Assembly (NCBI RefSeq): GCF_000026545.1
Contig: NC_011601.1
Reading direction: 5' to 3' (one strand)
DNA length: 64,000 nt
Source of the DNA: Escherichia coli O127:H6 str. E2348/69
GTDB lineage: Bacteria > Pseudomonadota > Gammaproteobacteria > Enterobacterales > Enterobacteriaceae
A program made the position numbers. Within the stretch, counting starts at the first letter, position 1. Each line of letters starts with the position of its first letter. Shown here piece by piece: positions 6,001 through 9,000 of this stretch.

Positions 6001-9000
6001 TTGTGGTAATGGGCGGCTGGTGGGTGTTAGCGGCACCTGCCAGCCATCTGCTCATGCGTTGGGGTCACAAGCAAACCTCAGGCCCATCTGCTTTGCGCAA
6101 AAGCGGTATGAGCCTATCAGAGAAGTGCTTATTGATCTATGATTAATACTGTAAAAATATCCAGTTGTGAGTTAATCAACGCTGATTGCCTGGAATTTAT
6201 CCAGACCTTACCGGAAAACTCTGTCGATCTGATAGTCACAGACCCGCCATACTTTAAAGTGAAGCCCGAGGGCTGGGATAACCAGTGGGAGGGCGACGAT
6301 GATTACCTGAAATGGCTGGACCAGTGTCTGGCGCAGTTCTGGCGGGTACTGAAGCCTGCCGGAAGTCTTTACCTGTTCTGTGGTCATCGCCTGGCATCTG
6401 ACACCGAAATCATGATGCGTGAGCGCTTTAATGTGCTGAACCACATTATCTGGGCGAAGCCGTCCGGACGCTGGAACGGGTGCAATAAGGAAAGTCTGCG
6501 GGCGTATTTTCCGGCAACAGAGCGCATTCTGTTTGCAGAACATTATCAGGGACCGTATCGCCCGAAAGATGATGGCTATGTGGCACAGGGGCGCGAGCTA
6601 AAACAGCACGTCATGGCCCCGCTGATTTCTTACTTTCGTGATGCGCGTAAATCACTGGGAATAACGTCAAAACAGATAGCGGAAGCCACCGGAAAGAAAA
6701 ACATGGCTTCGCACTGGTTTGGTACCAGTCAGTGGCAGTTACCGAACGAGGGTAATTACAACAAATTGCAGGCGTTGTTTGCGCGTGTTGCGGCAGAAAA
6801 ACATCAGCGCGGGGAACTGGAAAAGCCACACCACCAGCTGGTCAGCACATACAGTGAGCTGAACCGGCAGTATACGGAACTGCTGAGTGAATATAAAAAT
6901 TTGCGGCGGTATTTCGGTGTGACGGCGCAGGTTCCGTACACCGATGTCTGGACGCATAAACCGGTGCAGTACTATCCAGGGAAACATCCGTGCGAAAAAC
7001 CGGCAGAAATGCTGCAGCAGATAATCAACGCGAGCAGTCGTCCGGGAGACCTGGTTGCAGATTTTTTTATGGGTTCAGGTTCAACGGTAAAAGCGGCGAT
7101 GGCACTGGGGCGTTGTGCGATTGGTGTTGAGCTGGAGACAGGACGTTTTGAACAGACAGTCAGGGAAGTTCAGGATTTAATCGTTTGAAACGGATGGGAT
7201 TGCAGAATTAATTACGCACCATTATTATTCTGCTACCGGCCCTTTAGCTCAGTGGTGAGAGCGAGCGACTCATAATCGCCAGGTCGCTGGTTCAAATCCA
7301 GCAAGGGCCACCATCACATACCGCCATTAGCTCATCGGCAGAGAGCGTCAGCTTTCGAAACTGGCTGTGTGGGGCCCGGGTCCCCGATGGCAATCCATTA
7401 TTTGCATTATGCGTTGTTAGCTCAGCCGGACAGAGCAATTGCCTTCTAAGCAATCGGTCACTGGTTCGAATCCAGTACAACGCGCCATATTCATTCTTCC
7501 AGATTTCTTCCGGCAGAGCCTTATACTGGAATATACCTGGCTCAGGATATTGTTGAAAATATTATATGTTTGTCAAAAATAAAAGTTCTGTTAAGTATTG
7601 ATTGAGTGTTTGTTATACGGTCTAATGGTTTTTTCAGTATTAAATATTTATCATTCATATGGTGTGGGTAGAGTGAATATTGATGAGGCGTCGGGGTGTT
7701 TCATCCTTAGGCAGCGTATTGATATAGTCAATGCAGCACGAGCAAAGGCCTTCAGCCGTTTGACAGTTTTGTTCTGTACTCCTGATCGTCTTTCGGGAAG
7801 AGACGTTATTCTTCTGAATAGTGATGCTATACAGAGGGTTTGCGATGAGTTCATGGTTGCTAATTCAGAATTATTTGCTCTTGTTCAGGAGTACAACAGA
7901 ATAGCCAGGACCTGTGGTATGGATGAACTTCGGATTACTCATCTGGGGTAGATACATATCTGGATTATCACCTGTTACGGTAAAAAGTGATTGCTTACTG
8001 TTTTTGTGAATGGCATTGCAGCAGCCGGATAATGTCAGTGCTGGCTGACTGTGTACTGGTGGCGGGTGTGGTGGTTGTTGCTTTCCCGTTGCTGAAAAAG
8101 AAAACGCCAGACTGTTAGCCGGAGAAATTTTTAAATACTTCACAATTCAGGCGGTTGACTGTTGTCTGGTTTGCGGGGAGTTTGTTAAAAGAAACTGGCA
8201 TGGTGAATCCACCTGTGCGGAGGGGCAATCAGCGAGTAGGTATATGGGATAATCGCGGATTCAGGTGCTGGTACTGAATTCACCGGGAGGCACCCGGCAC
8301 CATGCAATGGCACATAGCGCCACTCTCCAGCCCCTCTCCGGAGGGGCTGTTTATATTGATTTTGTCAGATGTGAGTAAACTCCTTATGGACTTTGTTGTT
8401 TTAGTCCATAAGGACATATTTGCAGAGTGCAACGGTTATTAAAGCATTCATTCAATACGTTATCTGTATTTGTAGGGCATTCCTGGCTGTTTTTGATTAA
8501 ATTCCAGAATGTTTTATTGAATGGTACTACGTTGTAAATGGTTACAGGTAGCACTTTGTTATTGAGCATGATACCTGTGTGAGTCAGTGTAAATATACTT
8601 TCAGGAGGTAAGAAAGCATCCGATTGATACCAGATTATTAATTTTATTTTACTCCATATGACTGAAAAAGATATTCCGCATGATGGCTGGATAACTGTAT
8701 CAATCACAATCCACTTCATTTAGTTTCCTTGTTTATGCCTTGCTGGTGATGTTCTGAAAAGTATAAATGATATTTTTGATTGTAAACCATAGAGCAGAAT
8801 TATTTTTCTGATGTTGTTTATTGTTTATTTAAATGCAGGGTGGTTTATATCTCGTCTTGTAGTTTATCCATGCATATCTGCTTGATGATGAGGTTTTTAT
8901 TTAAGGTATGGTTTTGTGTTTTTTCTGTATTACATGTCAGGTATTTTAAAGAATTATTTTTCAGATGGTGGAAAGAACCATGGCATTTAAACACTATGAT

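Follow-up and report, generated by a model that had tools for sequence, protein, structure and literature searches.

Two tRNA genes in a lambdoid prophage of Escherichia coli O127:H6 str. E2348/69 are separated by a tRNA-sized sequence, and the question raised by this locus is whether that sequence is a decaying tRNA gene or an unconventional tRNA which still functions. The window, by which we mean the whole stretch of 64,000 nucleotides analysed here (contig NC_011601.1), is 100% identical to the EPEC E2348/69 chromosome, and the tRNA cluster lies inside the prophage. The RefSeq/PGAP annotation of E2348/69 places a tRNA-Ile and a tRNA-Arg at this locus and nothing between them. Judged from the sequence, positions 7321–7397 probably represent a pseudogene of the phage tRNA-Arg(UCG) gene argN, situated between two functional tRNA genes, and we put the probability of this reading at roughly 0.85. 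The cluster comprises three tRNA-sized units on the plus strand within 7190–7520, and its parts are arranged as follows.

6139–7188, plus strand: DNA-methyltransferase gene of the prophage, immediately preceding the tRNA cluster (annotation).
7238–7313, plus strand: ileZ-type tRNA-Ile2 with anticodon CAT, the intact upstream neighbour (ARAGORN default, Rfam 72.5 bits, RefSeq tRNA-Ile).
7314–7320, plus strand: spacer of 7 nt from ileZ to the putative pseudo-argN (sequence).
7321–7397, plus strand: putative pseudo-argN, a degenerate tRNA-Arg(UCG) gene of 77 nt with an encoded T-CCA end (homology to argN, ARAGORN with -ps, Rfam).
7321–7327, plus strand: 5' strand of the acceptor stem, CCGCCAT, whose partner ATGGCAA lies at 7387–7393 (ARAGORN with -ps, alignment).
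7334–7342, plus strand: D-loop ATCGGCAGA, in which G18 and A20 are kept and G19 has become C (7339) (sequence, alignment).
7353–7359, plus strand: anticodon loop TTTCGAA, 7 nt with U33, with anticodon TCG at 7355–7357 and C32T at 7353 (sequence, ARAGORN with -ps, alignment).
7375–7381, plus strand: T-loop CCCGGGT, with T54C, T55C and A58G, and C56 kept (sequence, alignment).
7398–7410, plus strand: spacer of 13 nt from the putative pseudo-argN to argO, with a T at 7402 that is private to E2348/69 (sequence comparison).
7411–7487, plus strand: argO-type tRNA-Arg with anticodon TCT, the intact downstream neighbour (ARAGORN default, Rfam 70.1 bits, RefSeq tRNA-Arg).

Read arm by arm, the element is CCGCCAT-TA-GCTC-ATCGGCAGA-GAGC-G-TCAGC-TTTCGAA-ACTGG-CTGTG-TGGGG-CCCGGGT-CCCCG-ATGGCAA-T-CCA. 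The description given in the original prediction agrees with this reading in all of its parts. A tRNA-sized sequence of 77 nt is present between a CAT tRNA and a TCT tRNA-Arg, both called by ARAGORN at its default setting; the D-arm, described as proper, has an intact stem (GCTC/GAGC); and the TTTCGAA loop with its possible anticodon TCG is found at the positions listed above. The acceptor stem that had appeared weak retains 5 of 7 pairs, as the changes G71A and G72A leave C/A mismatches at 1-72 and 2-71, and the T-loop that had appeared unusual carries CCCGGGT in place of the usual TTCRAnY. Two further defects were not part of that description: the C at position 19 (7339), and a C/A mismatch at pair 31-39 caused by G39A (7360), which adjoins the anticodon loop. 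The T stem (TGGGG/CCCCG) has 5 bp, one of which is a G-U pair. Among the nucleotides of the elbow, G18 and C56 are present, while G19, T54, T55 and A58 are gone. The cloverleaf of the element therefore contains 3 C/A mismatches among its 21 pairs, against none in 21 intact argN variants. Features that are kept include the 77-nt length, the D stem, the 5-bp T stem, U33, the anticodon TCG, A20 and the CCA end, and from the anticodon, A20 and the other retained features it follows that some of the ArgRS identity elements remain.

Two other explanations of the element were considered and rejected. An initiator-like reading of C1/A72 does not fit a sequence with anticodon TCG whose anticodon stem is without the three G-C pairs typical of initiator tRNAs. 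A coding explanation was set aside because the search for ORFs spanning the element returned no credible one, just short spurious frames crossing the tRNA genes.

At its default setting ARAGORN found the flanking tRNAs in the cluster region and missed 7321–7397, whereas with a lowered threshold (-ps) it called a tRNA-Arg(tcg) at exactly these coordinates. A scan of 331 nt with the Rfam tRNA model RF00005 gave the element 22.2 bits (E = 0.022), which is below the gathering score of 29 bits; the neighbouring CAT tRNA and TCT tRNA-Arg scored 72.5 and 70.1 bits, respectively. Thus both a high-scoring canonical fold and a complete lack of tRNA-like score, the two outcomes named in the original prediction as speaking against it, are absent: the default call is missing and the Rfam score is sub-threshold, yet 22.2 bits and the relaxed ARAGORN call remain. 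On the same Rfam model, intact argN scores 54.8–58.0 bits and a form of the middle gene with two stem mismatches scores 43.4 bits. Copies of the E2348 type score 22.2–23.5 bits or are unlisted, and two further degenerate forms of the middle gene are unlisted. One member of the E2348-type clade, the L051/L056 form, passes ARAGORN at default. The minimum-energy fold of the element is not a full cloverleaf and is no more stable than that of shuffled sequence (z = +0.10), whereas the one intact argN that was folded, from WP4-S17, forms a perfect cloverleaf (z = -2.85 against shuffled sequence).

Sequence comparison reveals where the element comes from. Over its full length, the 97-nt stretch made up of the element and both spacers can be aligned with the argN region of phage 933W at 85.6% identity (E of about 1e-23), and the alignment to argN of Stx phages that had been proposed as a check gave 85.6–86.6% identity over the 97 nt across Stx2 phages, with E values of about 1e-23 to 1e-24. 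The middle gene is named argN in the 933W record, and the same slot is annotated as tRNA-Arg in Xuzhou21 (an Stx2a prophage) and in WP4-S17 (a non-Stx prophage). In a four-way alignment, ileZ and argO of E2348/69 are identical to those of the Stx2a prophage, and the element differs from intact argN by 12–13 substitutions in 77 nt, 10 of which are transitions. These changes are G19C in the D-loop, where position 20a is also altered; C27T, C32T and G39A in the anticodon arm; one in the variable loop, followed by C49T; T54C, T55C and A58G in the T-loop; and G71A and G72A in the acceptor, where they break the two terminal pairs. The element has everything by which the argN lineage can be recognised, namely full-length homology, the slot between ileZ (CAT) and argO (TCT) in a lambdoid late region, and the anticodon TCG. 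Of the properties of a functional tRNA it has the 7-nt anticodon loop with U33 and the intact D and T stems, but a score above the gathering threshold, a default predictor call, a 7-pair acceptor stem, the elbow nucleotides and structure-preserving selection are all missing.

The last of these properties can be judged from the variation within the lineage. Of 5426 complete E. coli genomes, 65 carry the E2348-type element (71 places), among them EPEC, ETEC H10407, STEC and pig isolates. A second matching place was reported in the E2348/69 genome itself. No feature is annotated under the match in any of the 40 genomes listed out of these 65. The element is found in at least three unrelated flank backgrounds and has thus been spread by recombination along with both neighbour genes; the flanks of the clade members are mosaic, being non-homologous beyond about 180 nt upstream and diverging immediately after argO. 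Copies of this type carry 3–4 pair mismatches together with a C19 D-loop and a CyCGGGT T-loop. Among 14 loci representing 8 haplotypes, 8 of the 77 sites of the element are variable, against none of the 153 sites of ileZ and argO (Fisher p = 1.2e-4). The variants in the element include G18A, T55C (the state seen in E2348/69), a change of CCA to CTA and three stem-breaking changes; the substitutions also strike the T stem and the acceptor end, and no compensatory change was found among these 14 loci. ileZ is identical in all loci compared, and argO is invariant within the E2348-type clade.

This comparison shows that the element evolves without tRNA-type constraint while both of its neighbours are frozen. 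Such a pattern is expected where selection for tRNA function has been lifted from one sequence but still acts on the two genes beside it. Homology to argN combined with the loss of universally conserved positions, uncompensated damage in the relatives and invariant flanking tRNAs together favour a decaying gene. Of the two options left open by the original prediction, the decaying gene is thus borne out by the argN homology, the lost positions and the uncompensated changes, while nothing was found in support of the functional tRNA. From its sequence, the element appears to be an ordinary pseudogene, derived from a phage tRNA gene that is already known, rather than a tRNA of a new kind.

How such a pseudogene might behave can be outlined from its surroundings. 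Genes for RusA, a DUF1133 protein and the DNA methyltransferase lie 5' of the cluster in the E2348/69 prophage, and DUF3927, iraM and a SASA/NanS-type esterase lie beside it in the 3' direction of the transcript. The order of a methyltransferase followed by a tRNA cluster is also found in Stx2 phages and in other lambdoid prophages. On the plus strand just upstream of the cluster no convincing sigma-70 promoter was found, and promoter-like counts were at the level of shuffled sequence. Since no promoter-like site is present directly upstream, transcription most likely starts further upstream and runs through all three units together, and the element may still be co-transcribed with ileZ and argO in the late-region transcript. 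A middle RNA devoid of G19, T54, T55 and A58 would be expected to fail in forming the elbow between D-loop and T-loop, as well as a full acceptor helix, and for want of both it would probably not give a stable, chargeable tRNA. The middle RNA might then be turned over as spacer RNA.

Codon use offers a possible reason for the loss. E. coli has an abundant tRNA-Arg(ICG) for CGA, whereas for AUA and AGA, the codons served by ileZ and argO, it relies on scarce tRNAs. Loss of argN may be tolerated because CGA is already read by this abundant host tRNA. Within stx2A, ATA makes up 15 of the 20 Ile codons, and AGA and CGA account for 6 and 2 of the 24 Arg codons, respectively. It is plausible that low codon demand is the reason why this gene in particular has decayed.

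Decay of the middle gene extends well beyond the E2348 type. IMG/VR was scanned with a pattern whose two anchors were the 3' end of ileZ and the 5' part of argO, and the clusters listed, at least 120, contain 53–55 distinct middle segments. Twenty-one of the middle variants of 77 nt have a T-loop of the TTCRRGT type and a cloverleaf with none of its 21 pairs broken, and were taken as intact argN; another middle form, of 87 nt, has lost the anticodon arm. A degenerate middle element of the EC958/ST131 type is present, unannotated, in 1863 E. coli genomes (2336 places), and intact argN, annotated as tRNA-Arg, is present in 1213 (2130 places). In complete E. coli genomes decayed forms of the middle gene are thus no rarer than the intact one, being found at 2336 + 71 places versus 2130 for intact argN. 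The deposited phage genomes with a match are all of the intact argN type (251 of 251, mostly Stx2 phages), and no E2348-type element was found among these 251. Loss of the middle tRNA is therefore a routine event in prophages resident in E. coli.

Another possibility is that the middle element is retained as a tRNA-like processing module or spacer which no longer decodes, with RNase P separating ileZ from argO by way of a minimal acceptor/T-arm, or that its RNA has some other role, for example as a sponge. Full deletion of the middle element was not found in IMG/VR: in the clusters listed there, 87–111 nt separate the anchors in ileZ and argO, and no cluster with a gap of 0–84 nt was found. 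Moreover, all degenerate forms keep CCA and most of the acceptor stem, those of the E2348 and EC958 types also keep the T stem, and the spacers measure merely 7 and 13 nt. However, the absence of deletions is weak evidence because the loci, though numerous, go back to just a few independent lineages. Substitutions in the E2348-like clade also strike the T stem, CCA and the acceptor end. Were the element cleanly deleted, ileZ and argO would come to lie side by side and could presumably still be processed, so that a processing role would not be required. Taking both sides together, we regard a retained processing or other non-decoding role for this element as improbable. The wider proposal, that decayed middle elements of both the E2348 and the EC958 type are retained, either as tRNA-like modules for processing or because a small non-decoding RNA derives from them, also appears unlikely; if true, it would explain why decay of the sequence is frequent without full deletion in at least 120 clusters.

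The element is very unlikely to be an unconventional but working tRNA-Arg(UCG), charged and able to decode CGA/CGG in spite of its odd T-loop, D-loop and acceptor end. The outline of a cloverleaf with a 7-nt anticodon loop carrying U33 and TCG, together with A20, the 5-bp T stem and the CCA end, would suit such a tRNA, as would the ARAGORN call at a relaxed threshold and the persistence of the lineage in 65 genomes and at least three flank backgrounds. However, the nucleotides G19, T54, T55 and A58, near-universal in bacterial and phage elongator tRNAs, are gone from the element although all intact argN variants keep them. The two terminal acceptor mismatches, the Rfam score below threshold and a fold no more stable than that of shuffled sequence also argue against it. 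Changes within the lineage destroy G18, CCA and stem pairs with no compensation while the neighbours are invariant.

That the element resembles a tRNA by chance, or is an artefact that has nothing to do with tRNA genes, as its sub-threshold results with both ARAGORN and Rfam might suggest, is hardly credible and is refuted by the homology to annotated argN. This homology runs end to end at 85.6–86.6% identity (E of about 1e-23 to 1e-24), and more than 120 loci have the same slot, flanked by ileZ and argO.

Reading the element as an argN pseudogene has consequences for the prophage rather than for tRNA biology, to which the pseudo-argN adds little that is new. The E2348/69 prophage would supply two working tRNAs, reading AUA and AGA, and not three. 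For annotation, the gap between the two tRNA genes can be described as a probable dead argN and not as unexplained sequence. The frequency of decayed middle genes in E. coli genomes, set beside the intact gene in all 251 matching phage records, suggests that selection acts unequally on the three phage tRNAs and that the one reading CGA is most easily dispensed with.

A close counterpart among the decayed forms is the EC958 type, which likewise occupies the slot between ileZ and argO, is unannotated and goes undetected as a tRNA. In common with the E2348 type it has the 5' acceptor strand and, within the T-loop, the CGGGT portion. However, the EC958 type is 80 nt long with an intact acceptor stem, has its anticodon arm swapped for an unrelated hairpin, and contains a run of G residues (poly-G) that varies in length; its genomes number 1863 as against 65.

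Among intact systems, the argN genes of the Stx2 phages 933W, VT2-Sakai, Min27 and Stx2-converting phage 86 resemble the element in their slot after a DNA methylase gene, the length of 77 nt, the anticodon TCG, the D stem and the T-CCA end. In contrast to these, the element is unannotated, scores about 22 instead of 55–58 bits on Rfam, and has no toxin gene downstream. Among the papers searched, nothing relevant to ileZ, argN and argO was found apart from broad remarks that Stx phages have three tRNA genes (PMC4631060, PMC12502783); three are given for 933W, Min27, VT2-Sakai, Stx2-II and phage 86, and two for phiP27 (PMC4631060). The Stx2e phage phiP27, compared by its description only, is like the E2348/69 prophage in being lambdoid and in having two recognised tRNA genes in this region (PMC4631060).

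The element can finally be placed among bacterial tRNA pseudogenes in general, with which it shares homology to a tRNA gene, a sub-threshold score and disruption of conserved positions. Many bacterial tRNA pseudogenes are partial duplicates made at phage attachment sites. Unlike many of them, the element is of full length and appears to have decayed in place through point substitutions.

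The degenerate gene pseudo-argN, a decayed tRNA-Arg(UCG) gene lying between ileZ and argO, is not the only decayed form of the middle gene of this phage tRNA cluster. A second degenerate form, which we refer to as the EC958-type, is far more frequent than the form found in E2348/69, being carried by 1863 of 5426 complete E. coli genomes, where it is present without annotation. This form, and another in which part of the middle gene is deleted, were located as follows.

1632–1711 of locus L004 (strain EC958): EC958-type degenerate middle element, 80 nt
L011, L030, L064, L068, L069, L016, L023, L024, L008, L014, L025, L085, L103 and L109: further loci with the EC958-type element
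L006, L007, L040, L095 and L096: middle-gene deletion form, with a gap of 87 nt between the ileZ and argO anchors

In the EC958-type element the acceptor stem is perfect, and the D arm and T stem are both retained, as is T-CCA. A CGAUAAC-AGG-GUUGUUG hairpin is present in place of the anticodon arm, and the T-loop region contains a poly-G tract ranging from G5 to G13 depending on the locus. The form with the 87-nt gap is devoid of the anticodon arm, and in its acceptor stem T7C is matched by A66G, a paired change which preserves the pair. Among the matches listed in the IMG/VR scans, no contig has a distance below 85 nt between the 3′ anchor in ileZ and the 5′ anchor in argO; sequence decay of the middle unit is seen among these matches, but its complete deletion never.

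In some IMG/VR prophage contigs, the tRNA genes flanking the middle element are also degenerate. In some loci ileZ has lost 4 nt internally or is heavily mutated across its 5′ half, and the 3′ half of argO has been swapped for unrelated sequence in at least 10 loci.

RefSeq locus tags skip one value between tRNA-Ile and tRNA-Arg in both H10407 (L125; RS06620/RS06630) and 97-3250 (L128; RS15535/RS15545). A feature may have been called at pseudo-argN of these strains in an older annotation build and withdrawn later.

Sequence search of the E2348/69 chromosome (NZ_CP059840.2) indicates a second place matching the tRNA cluster, outside the locus in the window. An additional tRNA is present in IMG/VR contig L051, about 1.2 kb from the cluster, and its counterpart is absent from the window.

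3548–3619 of L051, minus strand: additional tRNA, 59.9 bits

Further Rfam matches in the window are listed below, all but the Plastid-ycf2 match being above the gathering score (the family threshold).

1262–1428, plus strand: sok antitoxin RNA
12643–12766, plus strand: STnc490
28269–28467, plus strand: IS009
57198–57276, plus strand: C0299
7238–7311, minus strand (ileZ reverse strand): Plastid-ycf2, sub-threshold (36.3 bits; gathering score 65.7)
8169–8358, plus strand: STnc100 sRNA, 123.6 bits

The Plastid-ycf2 match, most probably an artefact of tRNA origin in that Rfam model, recurs at the same ileZ position in all related loci. The STnc100 match is flanked by a DUF3927 ORF and iraM, and a terminator-like hairpin (8328–8349) forms its end. 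In related loci, the STnc100 element is likewise located downstream of the tRNA cluster.
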